Of a stretch of 32,000 nt of DNA, positions 3,841 through 26,329 are shown in pieces. Numbering within the stretch: the stretch's first letter is position 1; each line of letters starts with the position of its first letter. The position numbers and the translations under genes are program-made. Origin of the DNA: Candidatus Korarchaeum cryptofilum OPF8 (GTDB lineage: Archaea; Korarchaeota; Korarchaeia; Korarchaeales; Korarchaeaceae); NCBI RefSeq assembly GCF_000019605.1, contig NC_010482.1:510001-542000 (forward strand), written 5' to 3'. The notes under the pieces were generated by a model, which was not told the origin of the DNA, made no database searches, and worked only from the letters and a program-made list of their open reading frames with translations.

Positions 3841-3844
3841 GCTA

Positions 3845-4777: not shown

Positions 4778-4802
4778 CCCGCATGAATCCCCTCATATTA
4801 AT

Positions 4803-7511: not shown

Positions 7512-7512
7512 C

Positions 7513-8529: not shown

Positions 8530-8684
8530 ACTCCTCCGGTAAGATCCCCTCGCTCTGGGGATATCAAAATTTAAGTTTTACTCCCGAGATCCGTTAATCG
8601 CACTCTTTTGTTTAAACAGCGGATCCCTGAAAGAGTACACCATAAACTTTTTATATTTCAGGGCCCATGCTATAATAAAATCTG
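8530..8684. promoter_or_regulatory. divergent promoter region for the ABC permease/ATPase array and the binding-protein gene
   Basis: 155-bp AT-rich intergenic region. TATA-like TAAAACTTAAATTTTG lies on the minus strand (8565-8580). AAACTTTTTATATTTC lies on the plus strand (8644-8659). There is also a 10-bp palindrome TGTTTAAACA (8609-8618) inside a GATCCG...CGGATC inverted repeat (8588-8624). Confidence 0.45.
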
Positions 8685-10247: not shown

Positions 10248-10263
10248 CTCTACTACCCCTTCA

Positions 10264-10269
10264 TTTTTT
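10264..10269 (+). terminator. T6 tract downstream of the binding-protein gene
   Basis: TTTTTT lies 17 nt after stop 10245-10247. Oligo-T tracts act as archaeal terminators. Confidence 0.4.
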
Positions 10270-10411
10270 AATAGATTTAACGAACTTACCGGGATCATTA
10301 TTCTAATAACTTCCATTGGGCTTAAAATTAAAGATTTTTAATGAAAAGCGATTTTATGTATAAAGAGCTCCCCAAGGATTCGGAGGAAGGGAGTCACAGT
10401 TTTATATCTGA

Positions 10412-11065
10412 GTGATATTAATTCGGGGTGATCTCCTGGATAAAGTTCTGGGGACATCCCTAGCGAATGTATTCAGGATATGCTGCGGTCCTTTCGAGAG
10501 CCTCTGCTACCTAATTGAGAATAAAGCTGAGAAGAACTCGCTCCTCATAGATGCCGGATGCCCAGCTGAGGATATCGTAAGGCTCATTGAGGAGAGGGGC
10601 TTGAAGCTGGAAGCCATCCTGATAACTCATACGCACTTCGATCATTTACTGGGGCTCGGTGAGATAGTGAGAGCAACGAACTGCAGGGCACTAGCCCATC
10701 CCATGGACTTGGAGATGCTCCCCCTCTACTGGAAGGAGGACTTCGGCACCCTCCCGAGGATAGAACCTATAGAGGATGGGATGAGGATAAAGCTGGGGGA
10801 ATTGAGTTTCTTGGCCATTCATACACCGGGGCACACTCCCGGGAGCACTTGCTACTACTCGAGTGAGATAGGCTCGGTGTTCACGGGGGATACGCTATTC
10901 AAGGGCGCTGTGGGTACCTTACGCTACTCAGGGAAGCCGGACTACAAGCAGATGAGGAAGAGCTTGAGGAAACTATTGAGCCTCCCCGAGGATACTTCGG
11001 TTTTTCCTGGGCACGGGGATCCCACTACTATAGGGGAGGAGAAGAATACGATACTGAGCTTCTAA
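10412..11065 (+). CDS. MBL-fold metallo-hydrolase (glyoxalase II-like)
   Basis: 217 aa from GTG 10412. It has the HxHxDH motif ITHTHFDHLLG, followed by HTPGHTPGS and FPGHGD. Confidence 0.85.
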   Translation: MILIRGDLLDKVLGTSLANVFRICCGPFESLCYLIENKAEKNSLLIDAGCPAEDIVRLIEERGLKLEAILITHTHFDHLLGLGEIVRATNCRALAHPMDLEMLPLYWKEDFGTLPRIEPIEDGMRIKLGELSFLAIHTPGHTPGSTCYYSSEIGSVFTGDTLFKGAVGTLRYSGKPDYKQMRKSLRKLLSLPEDTSVFPGHGDPTTIGEEKNTILSF

Positions 11066-11082
11066 AAATATTCCTATTCCCA

Positions 11083-12189: not shown

Positions 12190-12272
12190 ACTACAAAAGT
12201 GGATGTTAGGGCATTTAAATATGTCCCCCCAGCAACTTTAAAAAAGATGGGAGTCTCAGGCATTAGATAACT

Positions 12273-14315
12273 ATGGTTAAGGACCCTGTGTGCGGGATGG
12301 ACGTCGATCCTAAGAGAGCGGAGTACAAGCTCACTTACCAAGGACAGGAATACTATTTCTGCTCTAAAGCGTGTATGGAGGAATTCTCGAGGGACCCAAA
12401 ACGCTACTTATCTGGAGGTCATCATGAGGGCCACGTTCATCATTCCTCCGATTTAAAGAGGAGGCTTATAGCCTCCCTAATTCTCACAATCCCTATTTTT
12501 TTCACATCCGATGTGGCTGAGGATCTGGGGATCTCACTGGGGATACATCAGGGAATAATAGGGCTGATCTCGGCATCTCTCCTCTTCCTCTATGGTGGCT
12601 ACCCCTTCCTCAGAGGGGCTGTATCTGAGCTCAAGGAGAGGAGCCCGGGGATGATGTTACTCGTCTCTATAGGGATCTCAGCATCGTTCTTCTACAGCCT
12701 ATATTCCTTCCTATCAGGGGGTTCTAAAGCCTTCTACCTGGAGCTCGCTCTCCTGATCGATATAATGTTGATAGGACACTTCATAGAGGCTAAAGTGATA
12801 TCTGCAGCCACGAGCTCGATGGATCTGCTCGTGAGACTCCTCCCTTATGGGGCCCACCTCATCTCAGACGGTAGCTACAGGGACGTCCCCGTCAGGGAGC
12901 TGAAGCCCGGAGATATAGTCCTCGTTAAACCCGGGGAGAGAGTACCAGCCGATGGTGTTATTATAGAGGGCGTCTCCTCCTTCGATGAATCCATCCTGAC
13001 CGGGGAATCCGCCCCAGTGGTTAGGGGGAAGGGCGGGAGCGTTATAGCCGGTAGCATTAATCTAGAGGGAGCAGTCAAAATAGAGGTCAAGAGGACGGGA
13101 GAAGATAGCTATCTGGGTCAAGTTGAGAGGTTGATCAAGGAGATAAGATCCTCCAGATCTAGATTCAAGGAAATAGCTGATAAAGCTGCGTTCTTCCTCA
13201 CAATATTCGTCATAGCCTCGGGAGCGATTACCCTAGCCTATTGGTCATTGAACGGTCATAGCTTGGGCTTCGCTATCGAGAGGGCTGTCTCGGTCGTCGT
13301 AGTTGCCTGCCCTCACGCGCTGGGCCTAGCTATCCCTATCGTAATACAGAGGACGGCTATGCTATCCTCGAGCAGGGGCATACTGCTGAAGTCGAGGGAA
13401 GCCTTGGAGAGGGCTAAGGACGTGAAGGTCATAGTATTCGATAAGACAGGCACTCTAACTGAGGGTAAATTCAGAGTGAAGAGGGTAGAAGCCCTTAACG
13501 GCTTCGATGAGCTCGAGGTCCTGAAGTTAGCTGCTTCACTAGATTACCTCTCGAGCCACCCTGTGGCTAGGGCCATCGTGAGGAAAGCTGAGGAGGAAGG
13601 GATAAAGCTAGTCGACGTGAGGGAGTTCAGGAGCATCCCGGGTGTGGGTGTGGAGGGAATTGTAGAGGGCAGAAGGGTCTCCATTACTGCGGGATCGGAT
13701 ATACTCGAATCGGGGAGCACGGCTGTCCAGATAATTGTAGATGGAGCGTTAGCTGGGATCGTGGAGTTAGAGGACGATCCCAAGGAGGGAGTTGAGAGGG
13801 CTATCGAGGAGCTCAAGGGGATGGGCTACGAGGTTCACATGCTCACTGGGGATAGGAGAGCTGTTGCCTCTAAACTCTCTGAGAGATTGGGGATAGATAG
13901 CTATCATGCTGAAGTGAAACCTCATGAGAAAGTCGATATAATAAGGGAGATGCAGGAGAAGGGCTTAGCTGTCGCTATGGTGGGGGACGGGATAAACGAC
14001 GCTCCAGCGCTGCTGCAAGCCGATGTAGGTATCGCTATAGGTGCTGGTACAGATATAGCTATAGAGAGCGCTGACGTAATACTAGTCAGGAGCGATATAA
14101 GGGATGTGGTCTACTTCTTCAAGCTGGCCAAGTCCTCATACAGGAAGATGCTTGAGAACGTCCTCTGGGCCATAGGATATAATTCGCTGACTATCCCTCT
14201 CGCAGCAGGGGCCTTAGCGGGGCTAGTGGTGATAGGACCCGCGATGGGGGCTTTGATAATGAGTATGAGCGATATCATCGTTGTGTTGAATGCGATATCC
14301 CTCAACGTTAAGTAG
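12273..14315 (+). CDS. copB: heavy-metal (copper) P1B-type ATPase, CopB-like, with N-terminal TRASH domain and His-rich stretch
   Basis: 680 aa. TRASH-type signature VCGMDV...YYFCSKAC, then GGHHEGHVHHSS. P-type motifs are LTGESAP, the CPH transmembrane motif (VVACPHALGLA), DKTGTLT, MLTGD and GDGINDAP. Confidence 0.92.
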   Translation: MVKDPVCGMDVDPKRAEYKLTYQGQEYYFCSKACMEEFSRDPKRYLSGGHHEGHVHHSSDLKRRLIASLILTIPIFFTSDVAEDLGISLGIHQGIIGLISASLLFLYGGYPFLRGAVSELKERSPGMMLLVSIGISASFFYSLYSFLSGGSKAFYLELALLIDIMLIGHFIEAKVISAATSSMDLLVRLLPYGAHLISDGSYRDVPVRELKPGDIVLVKPGERVPADGVIIEGVSSFDESILTGESAPVVRGKGGSVIAGSINLEGAVKIEVKRTGEDSYLGQVERLIKEIRSSRSRFKEIADKAAFFLTIFVIASGAITLAYWSLNGHSLGFAIERAVSVVVVACPHALGLAIPIVIQRTAMLSSSRGILLKSREALERAKDVKVIVFDKTGTLTEGKFRVKRVEALNGFDELEVLKLAASLDYLSSHPVARAIVRKAEEEGIKLVDVREFRSIPGVGVEGIVEGRRVSITAGSDILESGSTAVQIIVDGALAGIVELEDDPKEGVERAIEELKGMGYEVHMLTGDRRAVASKLSERLGIDSYHAEVKPHEKVDIIREMQEKGLAVAMVGDGINDAPALLQADVGIAIGAGTDIAIESADVILVRSDIRDVVYFFKLAKSSYRKMLENVLWAIGYNSLTIPLAAGALAGLVVIGPAMGALIMSMSDIIVVLNAISLNVK

Positions 14316-14367
14316 TTCTATATTTTAACTATAGTAATTTTTAAATTATTTAGGCGTAGTTTAGCAT

Positions 14368-14928
14368 ATGCACCACATACGCCCTATGACCAAGGATGCC
14401 GTACTCTCAGCCTTCGGAGGGGAATCGATGGCCCACATGAGGTATCTGATCTTCTCAGGTATAGCTGAGAAGGAGGGATTCCCCAACGTGGCTAGGCTCT
14501 TTAAAGCTATAGCATACGCTGAGCAAGTTCACGCTACGAATCACTACAACGTGCTCAAGGATTATAAGGAAGATGCCAAAGTCTCCGCTGGGACGCCGAT
14601 AGGCCCGGGATCGACCTCTCACAACTTAGAGCTCGCGATAGAGGGAGAGGAGTATGAAGTGAAGGAGATGTACCCAGTTTATATGGAGATAGCCAGATCG
14701 CAGGGGGTCGATCAAGCGGAGAGAAGTTTCAAATGGGCATATGAGGCTGAGAAGATACATGCTGAGCTCTATAGAAAGACTAAGGAAAGCGTGGATGCTG
14801 GAAAGGATTTCAAGATAGAGGGGAAGGTATGGATATGCCCCGTCTGCGGTCACACTTACGTAGGTGAGGTGCCTCCGGAGAGGTGCCCCGTCTGCGGGGC
14901 TCCCAAGGATAGATATGTGGGCTTCTAA
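14368..14928 (+). CDS. rbr: rubrerythrin
   Basis: 186 aa; ATG 14386 is an alternative start. Di-iron ExxH motifs are ESMAHMRY, YAEQVHA and EAEKIHAE. The C-terminal rubredoxin-like segment reads CPVCGHTY...CPVCGAPKDRY. A TATA-like TTTTTAAATTATTT lies about 25 nt upstream. Confidence 0.92.
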   Translation: MHHIRPMTKDAVLSAFGGESMAHMRYLIFSGIAEKEGFPNVARLFKAIAYAEQVHATNHYNVLKDYKEDAKVSAGTPIGPGSTSHNLELAIEGEEYEVKEMYPVYMEIARSQGVDQAERSFKWAYEAEKIHAELYRKTKESVDAGKDFKIEGKVWICPVCGHTYVGEVPPERCPVCGAPKDRYVGF

Positions 14929-14933
14929 CCTCC

Positions 14934-14940
14934 TCTTTTT
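14934..14940 (+). terminator. T-rich tract after rubrerythrin
   Basis: TCTTTTT begins 6 nt after stop 14926-14928. Confidence 0.35.
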
Positions 14941-15191
14941 AGATGGCTTTCTCTGAAATATCCATCGTAACCTTCAGTGAATCCTCATTCTCTAGGGATC
15001 CCTCAATCTGGAAGCTAAAACTCGCTGAGCGGCTAAGACAATATCGAATTCTATTACATCATCGAATAAGCGCTCCTGCATGCCCTCTCCGATAAAAATC
15101 AAGATCTCAGCTGCAGGTCACTTGACATTTCGAGACTCTTTAATATATGCATAGCTTTTCTGAGCTCCCAAGAGGCCCTCTCAAAGGATCT

Positions 15192-15203
15192 CTATATATA
15201 TTA
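15192..15203 (+). promoter_or_regulatory. TATA-like box for the membrane-protein pair
   Basis: CTATATATATTA lies about 47 nt upstream of ATG 15245. A GGGGG Shine-Dalgarno-like run at 15234-15238 sits 6 nt before the ATG. Confidence 0.4.
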
Positions 15204-15244
15204 AGGGACGCTACCTTAGCTAAACTCACGAAAGGGGGATCTAC

Positions 15245-16555
15245 ATGGGAAACGCCCTATCGAAGATATCTATGATAGCTGAGGCTTTCTTCGCGGGCTT
15301 CTACGTCTCCATAACTAGGGGTCTCTTCATACCTATGCTAGCATACTCCGGCTACCCAGTTCGCGATATCTCCCTCGTCCTCGTACCCACAGCGGTAGGA
15401 GGGATCTTAGTATCATCGATCGTCTATAGGGATCCGAGACTTTTCGAGAGCAGGTTCAAGAGGGTGATAATCTCCTCGCACGTATTGGAGAGATTGATGT
15501 GGTTCTCACTCCCCTTCCTCCTCCTAAGCCCTCCCATCCTCTCCCTCGCTTACATGCTAGCGAACGTATCCGCGGCCCTCACCAGCATCCTGATAGGGGC
15601 TGCAGTATACTCCATGTTCAGCGGGGATGAGGTGATAGAGGTCTCGATACACAGATCTGCTGCATCATCCCTCTCCTCCCTGCTCGGTTCCCTAGTAATG
15701 ACTTACGTCTCCGCCGCTTACACAGCCCCCTCATCTTACTACTTGCTCTACTTCACGGCCCTCCTCGTAGGCCTCTCCGGCTCCATGCTCCTGATGATGA
15801 CGCCCATACCAAGATCGATATCAGAGCCGAGATCTAGCGTCGTGGAGGAAGTGAAGATAAGGAGCGGGACAGCTCTACTAATCCTGAGCCTCATGTTCGC
15901 TGGAAGCAATATGCTTGGTATCGCCTGGAGTCCTCTATTGAAGGAGCTTGGGGCCCCAGTTTACATAACCGTGGCCCTCACTATCACAGGGAACGTCGGC
16001 GGGATCCTTGGCTCATACGTATGGAGGGGGTACAAAGCTTACATAACAGCCATGCTACTGAACTCACTGCTCACGGCAGCTATACCATTCATAGCGGTGC
16101 CAACTTATCATATAGCAGTATCTTTCCTCACCTCCCTGACATTCCTGGGTGTGAACTTACTTGGCATGCACGTATTCTCGGAAGTGAATGATAGGATCGG
16201 GAGGATAAGGGCTTCAGCTTATCTAGTATCCTCCAACTACATAGGACTTTTGGCAGCGAGCCTCATCTCCACATTCCTCCAATCCCCCTCCCAGAATCTG
16301 ATCCTAGCTGGTTCCATCAAGATGCTCTCAACTTTAATAGCGCTAATCACGATACAAGAAGCTGCGATAGTTCCGGCTAAGAGGGCATATGAGATAAGCA
16401 AGATAATCTACTCAACCAGCCTCCTGGGATACTCCTTCACTCTCCAAGCCTCTAGAGAGCTCCTCAAGACATTCATATCGGCTTTAGCCCTGACTGCCCT
16501 CTTACTGGTGCTCTACATATTATATAGGGTAGCTCTAACTCTCATCGGGGTGTGA
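15245..16555 (+). CDS. polytopic membrane protein with MFS-like topology, function unknown
   Basis: 436 aa. Two hydrophobic halves are separated by a charged loop (PRSISEPRSSVVEEVKIRS), with about 12 TM-length segments by eye. I recognise no diagnostic motif. Confidence 0.6.
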   Translation: MGNALSKISMIAEAFFAGFYVSITRGLFIPMLAYSGYPVRDISLVLVPTAVGGILVSSIVYRDPRLFESRFKRVIISSHVLERLMWFSLPFLLLSPPILSLAYMLANVSAALTSILIGAAVYSMFSGDEVIEVSIHRSAASSLSSLLGSLVMTYVSAAYTAPSSYYLLYFTALLVGLSGSMLLMMTPIPRSISEPRSSVVEEVKIRSGTALLILSLMFAGSNMLGIAWSPLLKELGAPVYITVALTITGNVGGILGSYVWRGYKAYITAMLLNSLLTAAIPFIAVPTYHIAVSFLTSLTFLGVNLLGMHVFSEVNDRIGRIRASAYLVSSNYIGLLAASLISTFLQSPSQNLILAGSIKMLSTLIALITIQEAAIVPAKRAYEISKIIYSTSLLGYSFTLQASRELLKTFISALALTALLLVLYILYRVALTLIGV

Positions 16556-16556
16556 T

Positions 16557-17177
16557 ATGCAAATAGTCGAGGAGCTCCTCGAGGCCATGAACGATGTGAT
16601 CGCAGCAATACCTAAGGTGGCATTAGCTTCATTGATCCTCCTCATATCCCTGCTCATAATCAGGTTGACCAATAGGATGATAAGGTGGCTCGTTAAGACC
16701 GGGAAGCTCGAGGAGGGGATAAGGGAGCTATTTCCGGAGGGTACTAGGCTCCCCCTTGCCAGGATGTTCTCATTGCTTGCGGATTCACTCATACTCATCG
16801 CTGCTTCAGCAGCCATAATCAGGATATTCGTCCCTGAGCAAGCTCAACTCTACAGTGAGGCTATGAGCTACCTCACCAGGATCGGGAGCGTTGTTATCCT
16901 AACTTTAGTCTCCATAGTACTCACGGACGCATTAGTGAAATCCATGAGGTTTGAGAAGAAGACAGAGAGGTTCTTCCTGATGCTTATCTCCCTCATAATA
17001 GCCACTCTGATAATAGATCTAGTCAACCTGACTTATGAGATAAAATTCGCGCTCTCCTTAGGTTTCGCGATAGGAATAGGGGCTCTAGTCGGTGTATTCT
17101 CAGCATGGGCCTTCTTCGGAGAGTATCTGGAGAGGAAGATGTCCTCAAGATCGGAGAGCTCAGTTGAGGATGCATAG
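16557..17177 (+). CDS. small membrane protein, function unknown
   Basis: 206 aa. The ATG lies 1 nt after the upstream stop (TGAtATG). It has 4-5 TM-length segments and an acidic C-terminus. Confidence 0.6.
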   Translation: MQIVEELLEAMNDVIAAIPKVALASLILLISLLIIRLTNRMIRWLVKTGKLEEGIRELFPEGTRLPLARMFSLLADSLILIAASAAIIRIFVPEQAQLYSEAMSYLTRIGSVVILTLVSIVLTDALVKSMRFEKKTERFFLMLISLIIATLIIDLVNLTYEIKFALSLGFAIGIGALVGVFSAWAFFGEYLERKMSSRSESSVEDA

Positions 17178-17194
17178 AGCTGACATGAACGCAA

Positions 17195-17242
17195 AACTTA
17201 AAAATCAAGAGAGTTGCGGATGATCGCAACGCTTAAAAATTA
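17195..17242 (+). promoter_or_regulatory. candidate GRE promoter/operator: two identical TATA-like 9-mers flanking an inverted repeat
   Basis: CTTAAAAAT occurs at 17197-17205 and again at 17232-17240. Between the two copies lies GTTGCG-gatgat-CGCAAC (17213-17230). Confidence 0.4.
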
Positions 17243-17270
17243 TGAGGCGGGGCTTAAAGGAGGTGGGTCA

Positions 17271-19724
17271 ATGACTCTCACTACCCCCGAAGCCTCTTGC
17301 GAGGTCAAGATTTCGAAGGAAGTTGAGAAAAGGAGGAGTGTAATTAGGCCGATAAATGAGAGGATCGCTAGGTTGAGGGAGGAGAGTGTTAACGCTCAAG
17401 TTAAGGTATCCCTAGAGAGGGCTAAATTAATCACCGAATTTTACAAGAGCGATATCCCGAAGGGGAAATCGATCCCCGTGCAGAGGGCTCTCGCGTTCAA
17501 GTACCTTATGGAGAGAGTCAGCCTCCCCATCGAGGAGGGCCAGCTAATAGTTGGCCTCAGGGGGACTGGAGTTAAGGAAGTCCCGACTTACCCTGAGATA
17601 TGCGTCCACAGCCTCGAGGATCTCGAGATCCTCGATAAGAGGAAGAACATGCCCTACAAGGTAGATGAGGAGACCAAGGAGTTCTATGAGAGGGAAGCGA
17701 TACCCTTCTGGAGAGGCAGGGCCATGAGGGACATTATATTCGAGAGCTTACCCGAGGAGTGGATAGATGCCTATGAGGCAGGAGTTTGGACTGAGTTCAT
17801 GGAGCAGAGGGCTCCCGGGCACACTGCTGGCGGAGAGAGGATATTCAGGATGGGAGTCCTGGACATAAAGGAGCAGATAAGGAGGAAGATGGAATCCTTA
17901 GATCCCTCGGATCCCGAGTACTACGAGAAGATGGAGGAGCTCAAGGCCATGGATATAGTGGCTGATGCCATAATGATATACGCTAGGAGGTACGCTGAGA
18001 AATTGGAGCAGATGGCTAAGGAGGAGAAGGATCCTGAGAGGAAGAAAGAGTTAGAGCAGATGGCTGAAATATGCAGATGGGTACCAGCTCATGCTCCCAG
18101 AACCTTCTGGGAAGCTCTTCAGCATTACTGGTTCGTTCATGTGGGCGTTACTTATGAGACGAACCCCTGGGACTCTTTCAACCCGGGGAGGATAGATCAG
18201 CACCTCTATCCATTCTACAAGAGGGATATAGAGGAGGGAAGGCTAACTAGGGAGAGGGCCAAGGAGCTATTGCAAGCGTTCTGGCTCAAGTTCAACAATC
18301 AGCCAGCTGTCCCAAAGGTGGGGGTCACAGCTGAGGAGAGCTTCACCTACAACGACTTCTCCAAGCTTAACTTGGGAGGCCTGACGAAGGACGGGAAGGA
18401 CGGTGTCAATGAACTCTCCTACTTAATATTGGAGGTCCTGGATGAGATGAGGACACTCCAGCCCAATACTGCGGTTCTGATCAGTGAGAAAAATCCAGAT
18501 AGCTTCTTAATAAAGGCCCTCAAGGTAGTAGGCCCTGGATTCGGTGAGCCCCCCTTCTTCAATTTCGACGGAGTTATAGTGAAGATGCTGAGGCAGGGGA
18601 AGAGCCTGGAGGATGCCAGGACCTCTGGAGTGAGTGGATGCGTTGAATCTGGCTCCTTCGGGAAGGAGTGCTACATACTGACGGGTTACTTCAACCTGCC
18701 CAAGATACTGGAGATAACTCTCAATAATGGAGTGGACCCGAGGACCGGGAAGAAGATAGGCCTTGAGACAGGGGATCCGAGGGAGTTCAAGAGCTTTGAG
18801 GACCTTTGGAATGCTTTCATCAAGCAGGTGAAGTACTTCTTGGACATAAAGATGAAGGGGAATGATATAATCGAAGCTCTATACGCTAAGTACCTCCCAG
18901 TCCCGTTCCTCTCCCTCTGGATAGATGATTGCGTCGAGAAGGCGAAGGATTACAACGCCGGAGGAGCTAGGTACAACACTCAGTACATCCAAGTGGTCGG
19001 ATTGGGTACTATAACTGACAGCTTAGCTGCCATAAAGTACCATGTATTCGAGAAGGGAACCGTATCGATGTCGGAGCTCTTGGATGCGCTCTCAAAGAAC
19101 TTCGAGGGATATGAGTTCCTCAGGGAGATACTGAGAAATCCGGATAAGACGCCCAAATTCGGGAACGATGATGATTACGCTGACTCCATAGCTAAGGAAG
19201 TAGTCGATAGGATTGTGGAGCTTATAGAGAGCTATCCGAGGAGCCCCGTGAGGAAGGCATCGAGAAGAGCGTACTTCCTGCCCACGACAGTCCACGTCTA
19301 CTTCGGGAAGGTGACTGGAGCGACGCCTGATGGCAGAGTTGCGGGATTCCCAGTATCTGAAGGTATATCTCCAGTGCAAGGCATGGATAGGAGGGGCATA
19401 GCAGCCGTCTTCAGGAGCGTCGCTAAGTGCGATTGGGACAAGACTGGAGGGGCCCTCCTGAACCAGAAACTCACGCCTGATATATTTGATAATGAGGAGA
19501 ATTTGAGGAAGCTAGCTCAACTCATCAGAGCGTTCTTCAGGCTCGGTGGCCATCACGTGCAGTTCAATGTCGTCAGCGCTGAGCTCCTGAGGGAAGCTCA
19601 GAGGAGGCCTCAGGACTTCCAGGACCTCATGGTCAGGGTAGCCGGTTACAGCGACTACTTCGTCAACTTACCGAAGGGGCTCCAGGATGAGATAATAGAG
19701 AGGACCGAGCACAAATCCCTCTGA
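17271..19724 (+). CDS. glycyl radical enzyme, PFL2/glycerol-dehydratase-like (eliminase-type) family, substrate unknown
   Basis: The track ORF starts at TTG 17214. ATG 17271 is preceded by GGAGGTG (17259-17265) and lies downstream of the TATA-like boxes, giving 817 aa. The glycine-radical loop is FQDLMVRVAGYSDYFVNL (Gly codon 19644-19646). The thiyl loop is a single-Cys SGVSGCVESG (Cys codon 18639-18641, Glu at +2), not the CC pair of pyruvate formate-lyase. Confidence 0.9.
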   Translation: MTLTTPEASCEVKISKEVEKRRSVIRPINERIARLREESVNAQVKVSLERAKLITEFYKSDIPKGKSIPVQRALAFKYLMERVSLPIEEGQLIVGLRGTGVKEVPTYPEICVHSLEDLEILDKRKNMPYKVDEETKEFYEREAIPFWRGRAMRDIIFESLPEEWIDAYEAGVWTEFMEQRAPGHTAGGERIFRMGVLDIKEQIRRKMESLDPSDPEYYEKMEELKAMDIVADAIMIYARRYAEKLEQMAKEEKDPERKKELEQMAEICRWVPAHAPRTFWEALQHYWFVHVGVTYETNPWDSFNPGRIDQHLYPFYKRDIEEGRLTRERAKELLQAFWLKFNNQPAVPKVGVTAEESFTYNDFSKLNLGGLTKDGKDGVNELSYLILEVLDEMRTLQPNTAVLISEKNPDSFLIKALKVVGPGFGEPPFFNFDGVIVKMLRQGKSLEDARTSGVSGCVESGSFGKECYILTGYFNLPKILEITLNNGVDPRTGKKIGLETGDPREFKSFEDLWNAFIKQVKYFLDIKMKGNDIIEALYAKYLPVPFLSLWIDDCVEKAKDYNAGGARYNTQYIQVVGLGTITDSLAAIKYHVFEKGTVSMSELLDALSKNFEGYEFLREILRNPDKTPKFGNDDDYADSIAKEVVDRIVELIESYPRSPVRKASRRAYFLPTTVHVYFGKVTGATPDGRVAGFPVSEGISPVQGMDRRGIAAVFRSVAKCDWDKTGGALLNQKLTPDIFDNEENLRKLAQLIRAFFRLGGHHVQFNVVSAELLREAQRRPQDFQDLMVRVAGYSDYFVNLPKGLQDEIIERTEHKSL

Positions 19725-19735
19725 GAGGAGTCAGC

Positions 19736-20635
19736 TTGAGCGGGATGATATTCGATATCCAGAGATTCGCGATACACGACGGTCCAGGGATAAGGACCAA
19801 TGTATTCCTGAAGGGATGCCCCTTACGCTGCTGGTGGTGCCAGAACCCGGAAGGGATAAGCCCAAAGCCGCAGATAATGTACTTCGAATATAAGTGCCTC
19901 CACTGCCACCTCTGCGTCGATGTATGTCCTCTGCAAGCTATAAGGATAGATAAGGGGGACGTCCACATAATAGATAGGGAGCTCTGCGATGCCTGTGGGA
20001 AGTGCAGCGATAACTGCCCATCTAACGCTCTGAAGTTGGTCGGAAGGGAGTATAGCGTCGAGGAAGTGATGGAGGAGATAAGGAAGGATGTGACCTTCTT
20101 CGATTCCTCGGGAGGAGGGGTCACCTTCACCGGAGGGGAGCCCTTCTTCCAACCCCTCTTCCTCAAGGGGCTGCTCGAGGCTTGCAAGGCTGAGGGCATA
20201 CACACGGTAGTGGAGACCTCCGGATTCGTGTCCAGGGAGATATTGAGGAAGCTGATGCAGTACATAGATCTCTTCTATCATGACATAAAGCTGTTCGATG
20301 ATGAGAGCAGCTCGCTATACACCGGAGTCCCGAGCAAGCCGATCTTAGATAACATGAGGTTCCTGAGTGAGAGCAAGAGGAATATGGTGATCAGGTTCCC
20401 TGTGATACCGACTATAACGGATACAGAGGAGAATATAAGGGGAATAGCCGGCTTTTTATCGACCTTGAGGGTTGAGGAGATACATCTACTCCCCTTCCAC
20501 GACGTAGCTGAGAAGTACGCCAGGCTGGGCATGCCATATAAGATGAGGGTGCATGAGGCACCGAGTAGGGAGAGGCTGAAGGAGATAAAGGAGGTATTCG
20601 AGGGCATCGGGCTGAAAGTAGTGCTATATGGTTGA
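19736..20635 (+). CDS. glycyl radical enzyme activating enzyme (radical SAM with two auxiliary ferredoxin-type clusters)
   Basis: 299 aa from TTG 19736, with GAGGAG at 19725-19730 upstream; ATG 19745 is an alternative. It has CX3CX2C (CPLRCWWC), two CX2CX2CX3C motifs (CLHCHLCVDVCP and CDACGKCSDNCP) and the SAM motif GGGVTFTGGEP. There is an 11-nt gap after the GRE stop. Confidence 0.92.
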   Translation: MSGMIFDIQRFAIHDGPGIRTNVFLKGCPLRCWWCQNPEGISPKPQIMYFEYKCLHCHLCVDVCPLQAIRIDKGDVHIIDRELCDACGKCSDNCPSNALKLVGREYSVEEVMEEIRKDVTFFDSSGGGVTFTGGEPFFQPLFLKGLLEACKAEGIHTVVETSGFVSREILRKLMQYIDLFYHDIKLFDDESSSLYTGVPSKPILDNMRFLSESKRNMVIRFPVIPTITDTEENIRGIAGFLSTLRVEEIHLLPFHDVAEKYARLGMPYKMRVHEAPSRERLKEIKEVFEGIGLKVVLYG

Positions 20636-21608
20636 GCTAGAAAAGATTATCTATTCCTTCAGCCCGGATGAGAGTATGGACTTCAAGGAGATTAGCGATA
20701 GGATAGCATCGATGGTCTCGGAGATAGCTGAGAGCGTGGTCACGGTATACACTACAGTTCCTGAGATCTCCTTCTTCTTCGGCCCAAAGGTCCTGCATGG
20801 AGCTGGCTCTGGTTTCATCGCGAGGAAGGGCATGGTCGTGACTAACGCTCACGTAGTTGCTAGAGCGAAGGAGATAAATGTAGTTTTCAGCGAAGGTTCG
20901 AGCTCAAGGGGCAAGTTGAGGGCCCTAGATACCATGAGGGACCTAGCCTTAGTCGAGGTAGACTCAGACCTTCCTCCCCTGAGGATGGGCGATTCCGATA
21001 GCGTTAGGATAGGTGAGCTGGTCTTCGCAGTGGGTTCGCCCTTGGGGTTGACAGGGACTTCAGTTTCCATGGGCGTCATAAGCGCGGTCGGGAGAGCTAT
21101 AATAGATGAGGCGAGCGGCATCTACTTAGATGATCTACTCCAGACGGATGCAGCTATAAACCCGGGGAACAGCGGAGGACCGATAGTTAATTGCGGGGGA
21201 GAGGCCGTAGGCGTAGCCACTGCAATAGTACCATTCGCTCAAGGCATAGGGTTCGCGATCCCCATAAACTCCGTGAAGAGGTTCCTCTCGATGATAGAAA
21301 AATATGGGAGACCGATAAGGGCATGGATAGGGGTCTTCGTCGCACCATTGAACCCGAATATATCCCAGATGTACGGTATACCACAGAGGGAGGGGCTCAT
21401 AGTCGTTCAAGTCATCCCGAGATCGCCCGCAGCATCTAAGGGCATAAGGCCGGGGGATGTCATAGTCGAGGCGGCCGGAAGGAAGTTAATTAAAGCGAGT
21501 GACCTGAGGAATGCCCTAGAAGATAACTACGGTTCGGATTGCGTTAACCTCAAGGTATACAGGGATGGGAGCTCATTCGAAGTCTGCGTCCCCTTAATCG
21601 TGGAGTGA
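20628..21608 (+). CDS. HtrA/DegP-family serine protease with PDZ domain, no signal peptide
   Basis: 326 aa. ATG 20628 overlaps the activase stop (TGA 20633-20635). Triad contexts are [14 protein letters not shown] and GNSGGP. A PDZ-like segment reads [29 protein letters not shown]. The N-terminus [25 protein letters not shown] is hydrophilic. Confidence 0.9.
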
Positions 21609-21986
21609 CTCCCTGTAAGCTATAGCCACTATCTCAACTAAAGCGTTCTTGGGCAGGGCTGCAACTTGAATAGTCGCTCTGGCTGGCTTGCTCTCCGAGA
21701 AGTACTCGCTATATACCTCATTGAATTCATTGAAATGGGATAGATCCTTGAGGAAGACCGTGACATTGACCACATCCTTGAGGGAGCACCCGGCTTTCTC
21801 AAGGACAGCCTTTATGTTCTCCAGGACCCTCCTGGTCTGCTCCTTTATACCGCCATCGACGAGCTCGCCGGTCTTCGGGTCGATGGGTATCTGACCAGCT
21901 AGGAAGACGAAGTTGCCCGCTATAACGGCCTGACTATAGGGGCCTATGGGCTTCGGGGCCCTGTCAGTAAATACGTACTCCACCAT
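21594..21986 (-). CDS. ridA: RidA/YjgF/TdcF-family reactive-intermediate deaminase
   Basis: 130 aa. It contains [29 protein letters not shown] and [19 protein letters not shown]. An AGGTGG Shine-Dalgarno-like element lies 5 nt upstream of the ATG. Confidence 0.9.
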
Positions 21987-22017
21987 GGGACCACCTAGCT
22001 GGTGGGGGATTGAAGGA

Positions 22018-23238
22018 TTAAAACATGACCTGGCTGAACTCCAGTCCCATGCCCCTCAGCCTAGATATGAGGAGGTCAGCGTACTCCCTGCCGGGGACCT
22101 CGAGCACTAGCGTGACTTGAGTCATGCCAGGATGTATGAGCGGGTTCAACCTCTCATGCTCGATCTCAACTATGTTGAAGCCTAGCTCAGCAACTACATC
22201 GATGACCCTCTTCAGCTGCCCCGGTCTCTCGGGCAGGACCCCCATCACCTTTATCTGCCTTCCCTCGAGCAGTAAGACCCTGTTCATTATCCTATCCAGC
22301 ATCGATGGATCTATATTACCACCGGAGAGGACGCAGACGACCCTCCTCCCCTCCAGCCTAAGCTTCCCAGATAGTAGAGCTGCTACCGGGAGCGCCCCAG
22401 CTCCCTCAACGACGGTTTTCTCCCTCTCCAATAGTAGGAATATAGCTCTAGCTATCTCCCTATCGTCGACTAATACTATATCGTCAACGAACTCCCTCAT
22501 GATCTTCAGGGTCAATTCCCCCGGCCTCTTAACTATAACGCCATCGGCGATACTGTAAGCTCTATCGGTCTCCACGATCCTTCCCTCCCTGAAGGAGAGA
22601 TAAGAGGAGGGAGCTCCAGCCGGCTGAACCCCTATTACTTTTGCATTGGGCTTCAATCTCTTGACAGCTATAGCTATCCCGGATATGAGGCCCCCTCCAC
22701 CCACCGGCACTATGACGGCATCGAAATCCAGATCGCTTATCTCCAATCCTATAGTGCCCTGCCCAGCTATTATCTCGGGATCATCGAAGGGATGTATGAA
22801 AGGTATCCCCTCCTCCTTGGAGATCTCCATAGCTTTAAGATAAGCATCGTCGTAAGTCTCCCCGTGGAGGATCGCCTCGCCACCGTAGCCCTTAACGGCA
22901 TTCACCTTGAAGAAGGGCGTATACTTCGGCATCACTATCTTGGCTTTCATACCCAGGAGGCTAGCTGAATAAGATACCCCCTGCGCGTGGTTTCCGGAGC
23001 TAGCCGCGACGACGCTCTTAACTCCCCTCATCTTGCTCATCTTGTAATAAGCCCCCCTAACCTTGAAGGATCCAGTCCTCTGGAAGTTCTCCATCTTCAG
23101 GAATACCTCCGCTCTCGACAGCTGCGATATAGCGTCGCTGATCATGACAGGTGTCTTGCGTATCACCGGCTCCAAGCAGCTGCTAGCTTCCTTTATCATA
23201 CTGAAGATCTCCTCGGGGTTCATAGGGATCCTGATCAT
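22018..23238 (-). CDS. ilvA: threonine ammonia-lyase (threonine dehydratase) with one C-terminal ACT-like domain
   Basis: 406 aa. The PLP-Lys motif is GSFKVRGA, with SSGNHAQG and VGGGGLISG. The regulatory-domain-like C-terminus spans about 80 aa. A TATA-like element sits immediately upstream, so ATG 23223 (MNPEE...) may be the real, leaderless start. Confidence 0.9.
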
Positions 23239-23273
23239 GCATCATTAATAAAATTTCCAATTCGGCGAGGGGC

Positions 23274-24269
23274 TCACCCTAACTTAATCCCGCCCTCCTC
23301 ATCCACGCAGATATTAACCTCCGCGTAACCTATATGCCATATCTTGGACTTGCCGGAGCTCTCGGCAGCTGAGTAATAGAGGGCGTAATGCCTGCACCCC
23401 CCTATCTCTTCCAGCAGGATGGCGGAGCTGCGATAGATTACGAAGCTATCCCAGCCTTTAGATGAGGGTGCGAGCACTGGGAAGGAGCTCAAGTTCCATT
23501 CGATCCCATCCTTACTCGTAGCGAAGTAGAGTTCCCCCTCCCTCAATCCCTTCCCCCTGTTTATCAGGACGATGAAGGCATCGTAACCTTCCTTGACCTT
23601 CACGACATCCAAGTGCCATATATTCTTATCATGGGGGACGCCGTTCACTCTGCACTTCAGGGGCTCGCTCCAGGGCCCAAGAGGGGATGACGCCGTCCTC
23701 AGTTTTATTACGTTAGGCTCGGGCCTTATATCGACGTACCACATCTTGTATAATTTATCGCGCACTACCGCCGGAGATATGAGTGTCTCGGAGTTCCCCT
23801 CCAGTATGGGGATCTTCTCGCTCCATCTAATGCCATCTATCGAGTACTTCGCATATATTCGCTCCTCAAGCTTATAGGACCACCTGAAGAAGAGCCAGAG
23901 CCTCCCCCTCTCATCCAAGAAGATATCGGGATCTGAATAGTGGCCCTGGCTCGGAGCTCGCTCCAACGGATTAATTAGACCTTTAGGCACCTGCCAGTTC
24001 TTCCCATCATTACTTGCAACTATAGATGGATTCTCATATATGCTTGAGCCGTTAGGATATGGGGTGAAGGCCATCCAGTACCTGTAGCCTCCGATGGGGT
24101 TCTTGAGGAGGAGCACATCCGGGTGCATCGCCTGGCCGGACCCATCGTAAGTCGGTATATTCAGCATGAACCTAGGGGAGCCAGTGTCCCTTATGAGCGG
24201 GATGAGGAGGAATAGCACAATCAGGTAAAATATGAATCTGGCCTTCACCCCTCTCCTCAGCATAATCAC
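23274..24269 (-). CDS. membrane-anchored beta-propeller protein (glycoside-hydrolase-like, GH43/32/68-type fold suspected)
   Basis: 331 aa from GTG 24269; ATG 24263 is likelier. It has an N-terminal anchor FIFYLIVLFLLIPLI. Repeated Asp-box-like blades are SNDGKNW, SIDGIRW and SKDGIEW. The HPDV...YWMAFTPYP...ENPS segment recalls uncharacterised propeller proteins from glycan loci. Confidence 0.55.
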   Translation of the reverse strand: MIMLRRGVKARFIFYLIVLFLLIPLIRDTGSPRFMLNIPTYDGSGQAMHPDVLLLKNPIGGYRYWMAFTPYPNGSSIYENPSIVASNDGKNWQVPKGLINPLERAPSQGHYSDPDIFLDERGRLWLFFRWSYKLEERIYAKYSIDGIRWSEKIPILEGNSETLISPAVVRDKLYKMWYVDIRPEPNVIKLRTASSPLGPWSEPLKCRVNGVPHDKNIWHLDVVKVKEGYDAFIVLINRGKGLREGELYFATSKDGIEWNLSSFPVLAPSSKGWDSFVIYRSSAILLEEIGGCRHYALYYSAAESSGKSKIWHIGYAEVNICVDEEGGIKLG

Positions 24270-24293
24270 TCAAGTCGTTGAAAAATTAAAAAA

Positions 24294-24596
24294 TTAGGGG
24301 GTCTCACCCTTCAGCTCCCTGAGCCTCTCCTCGATGTACTTCAGCTGCTCCCTGATGCCTCTTTCCAGCTCCTCGAGGTATTTAATCTCCTCTTCCTTGC
24401 TGGGGAAAGTCTCCTTTATCCAGGAGCTAGGAGGAGCTCTGTAGTACCAGAAAGGCCAGCAACGCCCTCTAAAGACCCATCCAGGCCTCTCCCAGGGAGG
24501 AAGGTAGCTGAAGGGTCCATGACCCGGCCAGGGCCCCCAACCTCTCCACCAGCCTCTTCCCCAACCCATACTACCACCATATGAAATATGTTCCAT
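24294..24596 (-). CDS. Trp/Gly/Arg/Pro-rich small protein with C-terminal coiled coil (DUF5320-like)
   Basis: 100 aa from ATG 24596. The TATA-like AAGTTTAAATATTT (24597-24610, minus strand) abuts that ATG, so ATG 24569 (MGWGRGWW..., 91 aa) is the more likely start. There are 10 Trp in about 50 residues. The C-terminus reads EEEIKYLEELERGIREQLKYIEERLRELK. Confidence 0.7.
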   Translation of the reverse strand: MEHISYGGSMGWGRGWWRGWGPWPGHGPFSYLPPWERPGWVFRGRCWPFWYYRAPPSSWIKETFPSKEEEIKYLEELERGIREQLKYIEERLRELKGETP

Positions 24597-24617
24597 AAAT
24601 ATTTAAACTTTTCCATG

Positions 24618-25004
24618 TCATCCGATGGACTCGCTCTCGCATTCATGCCCGCATTCCCCATCCTCGCACGGCTCCCTTATCTCCTCGAGCTTCCCCTCAG
24701 CTAAAGATTTCAGGGCATCGCTGACACTCATCCCAGCAGCTCTATATACTCTGATTCCATATTCCAATAGGTGGCTCAGGGCCCCGGGCCCGATACCGCC
24801 CACGATCACAGCATCAATCCCTCTTCTAGCCAGGGCTTCGGATAGGGCCCTTCCACCTCCTCTCCCAGCTCCATGCGGGTTCTGGATGACCTCAACGGAT
24901 TCCATATCATCCAGATCCACTATCGTCACAGTCCTGGCCCTGCCGAAATGGTAGCTCACCCTATCCTGGAGGCCCCCCTCATCCGTGAAGACAGCCACTC
25001 TCAC
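24618..25004 (-). CDS. NifX/NifB-C-terminal-like (dinitrogenase FeMo-cofactor-binding family) protein
   Basis: 128 aa from a GTG start. The segment MRVAVFTDEGGLQDRVSYHFGRARTVTIVDL...VIVGGIGPGALSHLLEYGIRVY matches the small Nitro_FeMo-Co-type fold family. It has an acidic Cys-containing tail, EPCEDGECGHECESE. Confidence 0.75.
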   Translation of the reverse strand: MRVAVFTDEGGLQDRVSYHFGRARTVTIVDLDDMESVEVIQNPHGAGRGGGRALSEALARRGIDAVIVGGIGPGALSHLLEYGIRVYRAAGMSVSDALKSLAEGKLEEIREPCEDGECGHECESESIG

Positions 25005-25048
25005 GCTATCACCCCTGAAATATATTTCACAAATATTTAATATTTTCT
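25005..25048. promoter_or_regulatory. 44-bp bidirectional AT-rich promoter region
   Basis: GAAATATATTTCACAAATATTTAATATTTT lies between divergent starts GTG 25004 (minus strand) and ATG 25049 (plus strand). It contains two TATA-like elements. Confidence 0.45.
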
Positions 25049-26329
25049 ATGACAGAGCGGGAGCATCCTTTTATGTTGCATCCGCCATTAGAGGATATGG
25101 AACCTCTGATAAGGGGGATAATCACTGTAAGCATATTGATCATAGCGGCTAAGCTCTTCTCAGGTGTATTCAGAGGGCTCAAGCTCCCTCCGGTCCTGGG
25201 TGAGCTCTTCGCGGGGATCCTACTCGGCCCCTACGCCCTCGGAGGAGGTATCCTAATCTTCGGGGAGCCCCTAGTAGTGATAAACGAATACGTTGAAGGC
25301 TTCGCTGAAATAGGAGCAATACTCCTCCTTCTAGCGGCTGGTATAGAGCTGGGATTGGAGAGTTTGAGGGCATCCGGGATGATAGCTGCCTTGATAGCCA
25401 CTGGAGGAGGTATCTTACCCTTCCTCCTGGCCTACTACTTCTACTTGACCACTGGGAGCAGCGAGGCCGTAGCACTAATAGCTGGAGCTGCATTCGTAGC
25501 CACTAGCATAGCGATATCCAAGAGGATATTGAGCGACATGGGGCTGCTCAGCACTAGGATGGGAGCTACTCTGATGAGCGCAGCTGTCCTAGATGACATA
25601 GTGGGCATAGTAGTTCTGGGTGTCGTCGTGAGCGCTATATCGGGTGGATCGCTAGACCCACTGTCCATAGCATGGAAGACGGCATCCTTCATAGTGATCT
25701 GGCTAATAATCCTAGGGATATCGGTAGCGATAATACCGAGGTTCATAGAGGCCCTGGAGGACTTCGGCGGGAAGGGAGCTGTGAAAGCTATAGCTATCTC
25801 AGCCGGCCTCGGCACGGCTTCCGTGACAGGAGCCCTCGGGCTCAGCCCCCTGGTCGGAGCTTACGCTGCTGGGCTGGCGATAGGTGAGTCCAAGTGGAGG
25901 GAGGAGATAATGGAGCTAGTCTCGGATTTGGAGGCGATATTCGGATCTATCTTCTTCGCGTACCTCGGGACCCTCCTAGACCTCAGAGTGATGAGCGATC
26001 CGAAGGTAGTGAGCGTCATACTGATCCTCACGGCCCTCGCAATGGCTGGGAAGTTCGTAGGCGCTGCGATACCATCGCTCCTATCCCTCAGCTTGAGGGA
26101 GGCCGTTGGGTTAGGGGTGGGTATGATGCCGAGGGGGGAGCTCGGGTTGATAATAGCTTCGATAGGTATCACCACTGGAGCTTTAGGGAGCGAGGCTTAT
26201 GCCGAGATAGTGGGGATGGTCGCCCTCACTACGCTACTATCTCCATTAATACTGGAGAGGGTATGCAGGAGGGGGATGGGAGATGATAGAAGCGGGGTTG
26301 GAGGCGGAGAGGAAGTTCAGAGTAACTGA
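25049..26329 (+). CDS. CPA2-family cation:proton antiporter (Kef/NapA-like)
   Basis: 426 aa; in-frame ATG 25073 and ATG 25097 are alternative starts. It has about 12 TM segments. LGELFAGILLGPYALG and EIGAILLLLAAGIELGLE are typical of Na+/H+-exchanger-family proteins. Confidence 0.85.
   Translation: MTEREHPFMLHPPLEDMEPLIRGIITVSILIIAAKLFSGVFRGLKLPPVLGELFAGILLGPYALGGGILIFGEPLVVINEYVEGFAEIGAILLLLAAGIELGLESLRASGMIAALIATGGGILPFLLAYYFYLTTGSSEAVALIAGAAFVATSIAISKRILSDMGLLSTRMGATLMSAAVLDDIVGIVVLGVVVSAISGGSLDPLSIAWKTASFIVIWLIILGISVAIIPRFIEALEDFGGKGAVKAIAISAGLGTASVTGALGLSPLVGAYAAGLAIGESKWREEIMELVSDLEAIFGSIFFAYLGTLLDLRVMSDPKVVSVILILTALAMAGKFVGAAIPSLLSLSLREAVGLGVGMMPRGELGLIIASIGITTGALGSEAYAEIVGMVALTTLLSPLILERVCRRGMGDDRSGVGGGEEVQSN

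Follow-up and report, generated by a model that had tools for sequence, protein, structure and literature searches.

C. difficile's trans-4-hydroxy-L-proline dehydratase HypD, a glycyl radical enzyme (GRE), and its activating enzyme HypD-AE (6VXC/6VXE; Levin 2017, Backman 2020) are the closest described counterparts of the proteins discussed here, and the roles of 15 active-site residues of HypD have been established through its structure and mutagenesis (Backman et al. 2020, PMC7077986). An adjacent proC gene characterizes the operon of Clostridiales, and hypD loci that do not carry proC are the norm outside this group. Glycerol dehydratase (GD; 1R8W) and HpyG/HpzG (8ID1, 8IOF) are also GRE 1,2-eliminases that carry a CXE motif, the latter two being N-methyl-cis-4-hydroxyproline lyases whose substrates, as for HypD, contain the hydroxyproline ring. 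Archaeal HypDs have been described as a clade that lies beside the HypDs of thermophilic bacteria (2018 paper, PMC6219649), and NCBI already applies the name HypD to the korarchaeal orthologue of Methanodesulfokora (87% identity to the protein described below) and to that of Aciduliprofundum. A 2026 review indicates that all PFL-like GREs of characterized function are bacterial, and that the function of A. fulgidus PFL2 (2F3O, AF1449) is debated between a glycerol dehydratase and an alkylsuccinate synthase. Earlier work has described the family together with its chemistry, structure and archaeal clade, and a routine annotation pipeline would be sufficient to name the hypD gene; a literature search on HypD in hot springs or Korarchaeum returned nothing specific.

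The window analyzed here is a 32-kb stretch of archaeal DNA. As judged from its sequence, it very probably belongs to a Korarchaeum-like archaeon that ferments peptides and harbors a locus for a HypD-type GRE together with the radical SAM activase dedicated to it. Its features are the following.

17254..17260, + strand: Shine-Dalgarno-like GGAGGTG, 6 nt 5' of the hypD ATG (sequence inspection)
17271..19724, + strand: hypD, predicted trans-4-hydroxy-L-proline dehydratase, 817 aa (PDB 6VXC similarity, NCBIfam NF043068, 15/15 active-site residues)
18636..18650, + strand: Cys loop GCVES, residues 456-460 (translation)
19635..19652, + strand: glycine loop RVAGYS, residues 789-794 (translation)
19736..20635, + strand: predicted hypD activating enzyme, radical SAM, 299 aa (TIGR02494, motifs, adjacency to hypD)
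19817..19840, + strand: CX3CX2C radical SAM cluster motif CPLRCWWC, activase residues 28-35 (translation)
19895..20017, + strand: ferredoxin-like insert with two CX2CX2CX3C motifs, predicted to bind auxiliary [4Fe-4S] clusters (motifs, Pfam Fer4)

The hypD open reading frame starts with ATG, and inspection of the sequence 30-70 nt upstream reveals A/T-rich TTAAAAAT boxes that may represent the gene's own promoter. Translation confirmed the coordinates and the RVAGYS and GCVES loops proposed in a previous sequence-only reading, as well as the absence of a CC pair, since a scan of the whole 817-aa protein detected no CC dipeptide. The same reading had called for checks on the Cys and Gly loops, and both are intact and aligned with those of HypD: Cys457, predicted to carry the thiyl radical, and Glu459, which supplies the Glu of the CXE motif, align with Cys434-Val435-Glu436 of the C. 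difficile enzyme, and Gly792, the predicted glycyl radical site, with its Gly765. The protein matches the Pfam PFL-like (PF02901, 771 bits) and Gly_radical (PF01228, 112 bits) families and belongs to the GRE superfamily, displaying a PFL-like barrel followed by a C-terminal RVxG glycine radical domain; its single Cys with Glu at +2, in a CXE motif that aligns with those of HypD, GD and HpyG, is the arrangement of GRE 1,2-eliminases. It resembles C. difficile HypD in fold, length, Gly loop and CVE Cys loop, and is not a pyruvate formate-lyase, scoring 158 bits against the TIGR01255 equivalog (cut-off 994). Its earlier classification as an archaeal GRE of the Cys-x-Glu eliminase type is correct.

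Among GREs of the PDB, C. difficile HypD (6VXC) is by far the best match for the 817-aa protein (965 bits, E 1.6e-289, 53% identity over 786 residues), with a score approximately twice that for A. fulgidus PFL2 or any other PDB GRE: glycerol dehydratase reaches 502 bits, HpyG (8ID1) 488, CutC 478, HpzG (8IOF) and A. fulgidus PFL2 (2F3O) 453 each, HplG (7VUA) 417, IslA 412 and PFL 122. For HypD a crystal structure with the substrate in place is available. The protein passes the NCBIfam HypD equivalog glycl_HYPD NF043068 (1170.1 bits, cut-off 1100), and all remaining equivalogs lie far under their own cut-offs, the next being at 582 bits (cut-off 1000); the match to the PFL2-3 subfamily model TIGR01774 also falls short, at 654.7 bits for a cut-off of 678.2. 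In the representative library (1.84 billion), just one full-length protein exceeds 640 bits, a HypD representative (920 bits) in which the 15 active-site residues are present, and the runner-up, at 632 bits, displays 12 of them.

Alignment to C. difficile HypD reveals that the 817-aa protein matches it at each of the 15 positions for substrate binding and catalysis. This fingerprint includes, in C. difficile numbering, His160, Asp278, Asp339, Glu436, Ser334, Phe340, Tyr450, Thr645, Phe152, Trp277, Arg156 and Lys326, of which Asp278, Asp339 and Ser334 are HypD-specific. In 197 members of the family (64-91% identity), 14 of the 15 positions never vary and the fifteenth is either Val or Ile. Most of the fingerprint is missing in GD, HpyG and 14 non-HypD representatives; GD retains five residues and HpyG seven, essentially the generic eliminase residues only. 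GD and HpyG/HpzG, at 35-36% identity, do not possess Trp277, Asp278, Asp339, Lys326, Tyr450 or Thr645. The window protein is an orthologue of HypD with full conservation of its catalytic and binding residues, and its gene is paired in an operon with that of the activase. The sequence-only reading had assigned the enzyme an unknown substrate and open chemistry, and had stated that close orthologues with a demonstrated substrate would overturn this view; it fails because the bit scores, the HypD equivalog pass and the conserved residues identify just such an orthologue in the characterized HypD.

A neighbor-joining tree that included three characterized GREs (C. difficile HypD, GD and HpyG) placed the window protein with Korarchaeia, in a separate clade of thermophiles whose sister is C. 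difficile HypD; GD and HpyG branch outside this pair. The thermophile clade mixes archaeal with bacterial sequences and, in contrast to C. difficile, the window's host is an archaeon, probably a hyperthermophile. Archaea account for 38 of the best 80 genomic matches, from at least eight lineages, a share that renders outdated the notion that GREs are sparse in Archaea. The predicted archaeal HypDs of Methanodesulfokora, Aciduliprofundum boonei, Thermoplasmata and Thermococci MAGs are 64-91% identical to the window protein and share both its fingerprint and the hypD-activase pair.

The activase gene starts at TTG 19736 (an alternative ATG lies at 19745), 11 nt after the hypD stop and just downstream of a GAGGAG; 68 of 78 related loci have an activase gene no more than 5 kb from hypD. 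As in C. difficile HypD-AE, the predicted enzyme carries two auxiliary clusters and is encoded directly downstream of hypD. Its CX3CX2C motif, two-cluster insert and hypD neighbor identify the 299-aa protein as a GRE activase. The insert motifs, CLHCHLCVDVC at residues 54-64 and CDACGKCSDNC at 84-94, together with Pfam matches to Radical_SAM and Fer4 families, the latter over residues 49-106, substantiate the extra 2x CX2CX2CX3C insert noticed in the sequence-only reading. The match to TIGR02494, the model for GRE activating proteins, reaches 355 bits (cut-off 174). The protein does not reach the cut-off of 425 of the HypD activase equivalog NF043069, scoring 351.2 bits, but NF043069 is still its top specific activase model, with the runner-up at 311 bits; the Thermococci orthologue, at 376 bits, is also under this cut-off.

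The neighborhood of hypD in the window offers few clues. A survey of open reading frames down to 110 aa (down to 80 aa in positions 12000-26000) yielded neither a P5C reductase nor an aldehyde dehydrogenase or a microcompartment gene, as had been claimed, and prolidase, hydroxyproline epimerase and P5C dehydrogenase are likewise absent from the 32-kb window. The locus thus differs from that of C. difficile in having neither an adjacent proC nor any sign of a Stickland proline-reductase context. The missing P5C reductase does not, however, count against HypD: a ProC motif (SPGGTT-type) was present in none of 1070 open reading frames within 10 kb of hypD in 80 related loci, in keeping with what is usual outside Clostridiales. 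An ALDH motif scan of the related loci yielded one P5C dehydrogenase-like gene, 250 nt from hypD in locus L037. In 15 of 78 related loci, a prolidase-like, proline-racemase-family or GH127 gene lies within 5 kb of hypD (M24 PepQ-like prolidase in 10 loci, proline racemase/4-hydroxyproline epimerase family in five, GH127 in three). In a Thermococci locus (L005) whose HypD is 86% identical, hypD is embedded in a full proline/hydroxyproline island, which the window does not possess; the order is ProDH-like subunits, OCD-family reductase, ProR-family gene, SNF symporter, hypD, ProR-family gene and activase.

The nearest relative of the 817-aa protein, at 91% identity, is encoded in a Candidatus Korarchaeum sp. 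MAG on a contig that is syntenic with the window. In the closest korarchaeal contigs an APC amino-acid permease lies immediately 5' of hypD, and in Candidatus Korarchaeum sp. the permease is accompanied upstream by a small AsnC/RAM-domain protein; the window carries neither. The 631-aa permease of Candidatus Korarchaeum sp. is a weak candidate for a part of the system, as no close homologue adjoins hypD elsewhere. The HtrA/PDZ protease at 20628-21608, whose start overlaps the activase stop, was rejected as a member because, in the korarchaeal contigs nearest to the window, a THUMP methyltransferase sits between protease and activase. Two membrane proteins encoded upstream, at 15245-16555 (weak MFS) and 16557-17177, were also discarded as a hydroxyproline transporter: they have no NCBIfam match, no association with hypD beyond Korarchaeum, and three genes intervene in relatives. 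The family of the oligopeptide ABC transporter at 4803-10247 occurs no more than 5 kb from hypD in 19 related loci, but in the window over 7 kb and several unrelated genes lie between the two, and the transporter is not counted as a member of the system.

Could the enzyme act on something other than trans-4-hydroxy-L-proline? The thermophile/archaeal clade could consist of HypD-like eliminases for a different isomer of hydroxyproline, for an N-methylated derivative of it or for a cyclic amino acid of the hydroxypipecolate type. The identity of only 53% to the assayed HypD, the existence of GREs for other hydroxyproline isomers (HplG, HpyG, HpzG), the proline-racemase-family genes that adjoin hypD in some relatives, a family with activity on several isomers of proline and hydroxyproline, and the exclusively bacterial origin of the PFL-like GREs characterized to date (2026 review) all leave room for such a shift. 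We nevertheless consider it improbable, given that the first-shell and catalytic residues of HypD are complete in the protein and kept in its clade (14 of the 15 strictly), that the HypD equivalog cut-off is passed, and that the enzymes for other isomers score just 417-488 bits and do not possess Asp278, Asp339, Tyr450 and Thr645; a neighboring epimerase could equally well supply trans-4-L-hydroxyproline to HypD.

Membership in the A. fulgidus-type archaeal PFL2 group, with substrate and chemistry open, was the view taken in the sequence-only reading, and it has the CXE eliminase loop and the archaeal host, both common to the two proteins, the uninformative neighbors in the window and the still unassigned function of A. 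fulgidus PFL2 (2026 review) in its favor. It is highly improbable in light of the complete HypD fingerprint and of the scores: A. fulgidus PFL2, with less than half the bits of HypD (453 against 965), is no nearer to the window protein than bacterial CutC or HpzG, and the TIGR01774 model remains under its cut-off, so that the kinship proposed with the Archaeoglobus/Thermococcales PFL2 proteins does not hold. The chance is slimmer still that the protein is a B12-independent glycerol/1,2-propanediol dehydratase or another small-molecule eliminase (acting on choline, isethionate or DHPS). It shares the CXE loop with these enzymes, and its His184 is the counterpart of His164 of glycerol dehydratase, but identity to the latter is 36%, the residues of glycerol dehydratase at the positions of Asp301, Asp362, Ser357, Tyr473 and Thr672 are His, Met, Phe, Phe and Ser, and the matching NCBIfam equivalogs score at most about half of their cut-offs.

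For the preferred HypD assignment, we infer the substrate, product and radical steps of the korarchaeal enzyme from its C. difficile orthologue. S-adenosylmethionine would be cleaved reductively at the CX3CX2C cluster of the activase, with electrons arriving through the two auxiliary clusters, and the 5'-deoxyadenosyl radical would take a hydrogen from Gly792, generating a stable glycyl radical. In each turnover the radical would pass to Cys457, whose thiyl radical would abstract a hydrogen from C5 of trans-4-hydroxy-L-proline. The substrate is expected to be held at its carboxylate by Ser357, Tyr473 and Thr672, at its amine, via water, by Asp301 and Asp362, and at its ring by Phe363, Phe176 and Trp300. 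The C4 hydroxyl would be lost as water, promoted by Asp301 with His184 and Glu459, and return of the hydrogen to C4 would yield delta-1-pyrroline-5-carboxylate (P5C), which enzymes encoded outside the window presumably oxidize to glutamate or reduce to proline. It is of note that 53% identity to an assayed HypD is, on sequence alone, compatible with a shift to a closely related substrate.

As a discovery the finding matters little, the protein being largely an ordinary HypD orthologue, although it does raise ecological questions regarding the origin of free hydroxyproline in the hot-spring habitat of the korarchaeon and the fate of P5C where no P5C reductase is linked. A broader reading, which we regard as rather unlikely, is that hydroxyproline breakdown by GREs is a widespread trait of hot anoxic communities, shared between archaea and bacteria and fed by hydroxyproline of microbial origin; the source may then be microbes and not animal collagen or plant cell walls, a possible candidate being trans-4-hydroxyproline as an organic solute of hyperthermophiles such as Thermococcus litoralis. 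If this were true, the korarchaeal enzyme would become the first GRE of an archaeon to which a function can be assigned, and would reveal an unrecognized geothermal hydroxyproline cycle in which the fate of P5C is unlike that in the clostridial Stickland route. In practical terms, since its substrate can be predicted with confidence and it stems from a thermophile, the korarchaeal HypD, possibly a robust scaffold, is a convenient first archaeal PFL-like GRE target for biochemistry.

The glycyl radical enzyme (GRE) encoded by the hypD gene of the window is, as predicted from its sequence, an orthologue of a known enzyme, trans-4-hydroxy-L-proline dehydratase (HypD), whose structure and mechanism have been characterised. 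The sequence-only reading of this DNA had described the open reading frames, both radical loops and the Cys motifs of the activase, all of which are present:

17271-19724, + strand: hypD, 817 aa, with an ATG start preceded by GGAGGTG
hypD residues 456-460: thiyl loop GCVES
hypD residues 789-794: glycine loop RVAGYS
19736-20635, + strand: activase, 299 aa, beginning 11 nt past hypD
activase residues 28-35: CPLRCWWC
activase residues 54-64: CLHCHLCVDVC
activase residues 84-94: CDACGKCSDNC

A longer hypD reading from a TTG start at 17214 is less likely than the one from ATG 17271. The Cys-Cys dipeptide is absent across the whole 817-aa protein. The interpretation given with that reading is partly supported, being right about an eliminase-type GRE from an archaeon and about its three-cluster activase. 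Pfam detects in the enzyme a PFL-like domain (771 bits) and a Gly_radical domain (112 bits); the activase matches Radical_SAM and several Fer4 families, and scores 355 bits on TIGR02494 (GRE activating protein; cut-off 174).

The best match of the window protein among all solved structures is Clostridioides difficile HypD (6VXC), at 965 bits (E 1.6e-289), with 786 residues aligned and 53% of them identical, and GREs of other function reach approximately half of that score or lower.

Scores of other GREs against the window protein
Glycerol dehydratase: 502 bits
HpyG (8ID1), a lyase for N-methyl-cis-4-hydroxyproline: 488 bits
CutC: 478 bits
HpzG (8IOF), a lyase for the same substrate: 453 bits
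Archaeoglobus fulgidus PFL2 (2F3O): 453 bits
HplG: 417 bits
IslA: 412 bits
PFL: 122 bits

Family models point the same way, since the protein passes the curated cut-off of the NCBIfam HypD equivalog NF043068 (1170.1 bits; cut-off 1100), falls short of that of the generic PFL2-3 subfamily model (654.7; cut-off 678.2), and lies far under those of the remaining NCBIfam equivalogs. Its earlier placement in the PFL2 group is thus wrong in view of both the structural and the subfamily scores; the overall picture drawn at that stage fits A. fulgidus PFL2, not the window protein.

The Hyp-bound structure of HypD, together with mutagenesis, has defined the residues that handle Hyp, or trans-4-hydroxy-L-proline (Backman et al. 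2020, PMC7077986): Glu436, Asp278, Ser334, Thr645, and Tyr450 form hydrogen bonds to Hyp, as does Asp339 via water; His160 is a catalytic partner; Phe152, Trp277, and Phe340 contact the ring; Arg156 and Lys326 are charge partners; and Cys434 and Gly765 are the radical sites. Mapping by HMMER alignment (PDB chain number being native plus 20, checked at Cys434) reveals that the window protein matches HypD at 15 of 15 positions (F176, R180, H184, W300, D301, K349, S357, D362, F363, C457, V458, E459, Y473, T672, and G792). At these positions glycerol dehydratase retains five and HpyG seven, essentially generic eliminase residues only, and across 197 aligned family sequences (64-91% identity to the window protein) fourteen never vary, with either Val or Ile at the fifteenth. 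The active site, the structural match and the equivalog score together overturn the claim of an unknown substrate.

To explore the boundary of the family, 1.84 billion representatives of 50% identity clusters were searched with HMMER in filter-only mode. Apart from fragments, a single representative of full length came back at 920 bits (52% identity, 15/15 fingerprint residues); below a gap follow one at 632 bits (41% identity) and a downward continuum. The 632-bit sequence, P0126, is the nearest non-HypD representative; it carries 12 of the 15 residues, the essential Asp278 being replaced by Tyr and Trp277 by a gap, and may be an uncharacterised GRE acting on a related substrate. Thirteen further representatives carry 2-7. 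In a neighbour-joining tree, which includes only three characterised enzymes and therefore serves to check consistency, not as a full phylogeny, the window protein groups with Ca. Korarchaeum sp. and Methanodesulfokora within a thermophile clade; C. difficile HypD is the sister of this clade, and both glycerol dehydratase and HpyG fall outside.

By analogy with HypD, the residues observed here would support the following chemistry. The CX3CX2C cluster of the activase and S-adenosylmethionine would generate a 5'-deoxyadenosyl radical that takes a hydrogen from Gly792, whose radical would pass to Cys457; the latter would abstract the C5 hydrogen of Hyp. Asp301 would deprotonate the amine and protonate the departing C4 hydroxyl, positioned by His184 and Glu459, and, upon loss of water, return of the hydrogen to C4 would yield delta-1-pyrroline-5-carboxylate (P5C). 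Oxidation of this product to glutamate, or its reduction to proline, would presumably fall to enzymes encoded outside the window.

The neighbours of hypD in the window encode a heavy-metal P-type ATPase, rubrerythrin, two functionally unassigned membrane proteins, an HtrA/PDZ protease, RidA, and threonine ammonia-lyase; genes for an ABC transporter of oligopeptides and for an amino-acid permease lie further off. Neither P5C reductase nor aldehyde dehydrogenase is found among the window genes, and the earlier remark that these neighbours give no substrate clue is borne out. Only 93 nt (17178-17270) separate hypD from the upstream membrane-protein gene, whereas the closest Ca. Korarchaeum sp. 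contigs carry at this point a 2.8-kb module (7301-9898 of contig L081) encoding an APC amino-acid permease of 631 aa, an AsnC/RAM-domain protein of 84 aa, and an unknown one of 146 aa; between the activase and HtrA these contigs have a THUMP methyltransferase as well, which is absent from the window. Other genes of the window include:

1600-4777: polyamine/hypusine group (agmatine/arginine deiminase-family, Orn/Arg decarboxylase-like, deoxyhypusine synthase), adjoining an amino-acid permease and the oligopeptide ABC transporter (4803-10247)
11083-12189, - strand: 368-aa protein, mostly near-identical tandem repeats of ~22 aa (SSKIAELTENLNNLSKRTDEINAQL); its sequence suggests a coiled coil followed by a globular C-terminal portion, and Pfam gave spurious coiled-coil matches only
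23274-24269, - strand: 331-aa protein, conserved in position in Korarchaeum sp. contigs, with a sub-threshold GH43 Pfam match, no matching NCBIfam family, and clear similarity to the 'carbohydrate-binding protein' of PDB 6N1A (E 4.6e-28)
24294-24596, - strand: 100-aa protein whose N-terminal half is rich in Trp, Gly, Pro and Arg (GWGRGWWRGWGPWPGHGP...), lacking any Pfam match; its gene is directly downstream of the PF02579 gene listed next
24618-25004, - strand: PF02579 gene (NifX/NifB-like, dinitrogenase FeMo-cofactor binding)

It is the neighbourhoods of relatives, and not that of the window, that are informative about substrate context. The open reading frames of 80 related loci were clustered and the clusters annotated, with neighbours counted within 5 kb of hypD:

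Activase: 68 of 78 related loci
Opp/Dpp-type ABC ATPases: 19 related loci
M24 PepQ-like prolidase: 10 related loci
Proline racemase/4-hydroxyproline epimerase family: 5 related loci
GH127 (beta-L-arabinofuranosidase family): 3 related loci

One proline-racemase-family member from these loci passes the 4-Hyp epimerase cut-off. A Thermococci MAG (L005), whose HypD shares 86% identity with the window protein and reaches 1157 bits with the HypD model, encodes at 2461-14433, in order, proline-dehydrogenase-like SoxA/SoxB-type subunits, an OCD-family reductase, a ProR-family gene, an SNF symporter, hypD, a second ProR-family gene, and the activase, an island that resembles the characterised proline/hydroxyproline cluster of Thermococcus litoralis (PMC4364671). 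The second ProR-family gene, between hypD and the activase, best matches trans-3-hydroxy-L-proline dehydratase, below cut-off. No ProC-like protein lies within 10 kb of hypD in the 80 related loci; a single P5C dehydrogenase-like gene occurs, in a Nitrososphaeria MAG, at a distance of 250 nt from hypD.

One genome per prokaryotic species was scanned, yielding 272 relatives; of the top 80 (64-87% identity), 38 come from archaea, so that the view of GREs as sparse in Archaea no longer holds for the HypD family. These 38 belong to Korarchaeia, Thermococci, Methanomethylicia/Culexarchaeia, Bathyarchaeia, Aigarchaeota/Nitrososphaeria, Desulfurococcaceae, Sulfolobales, and Thermoplasmata; the others come from bacteria that are thermophilic or halophilic. 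A Candidatus Korarchaeum sp. MAG has the closest protein (91% identity), and the window is syntenic with contig L081 on either side of the GRE, nucleotide identity being 80% over hypD and the activase (compared over 17298-20538) vs 67-73% in the syntenic flanks. A few bacterial sequences (Aerophobetes, 84%, and bacterium GBS-1, 83% protein identity) are nested among archaeal ones in the tree, a position that suggests transfer of hypD between archaea and bacteria among thermophiles.

An archaeal HypD clade is already noted in both literature and annotation. The discoverers of HypD reported it in 2018 in several archaeal genomes, as a clade of its own close to thermophilic bacterial HypDs (PMC6219649), and the NCBI name 'trans-4-hydroxy-L-proline dehydratase' is carried by orthologues of Methanodesulfokora (Korarchaeia), Aciduliprofundum boonei, and Thermoplasmata. 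According to a 2026 review, characterised functions among PFL-like GREs are exclusively bacterial, and the sole structurally characterised archaeal GRE is A. fulgidus PFL2, whose function is still debated. Accumulation of trans-4-hydroxyproline, as an organic solute, is reported for T. litoralis, which offers a possible microbial source of Hyp for geothermal habitats. The remaining interest of this locus lies in the activity of an archaeal HypD, the source of Hyp in such habitats, and the fate of P5C.
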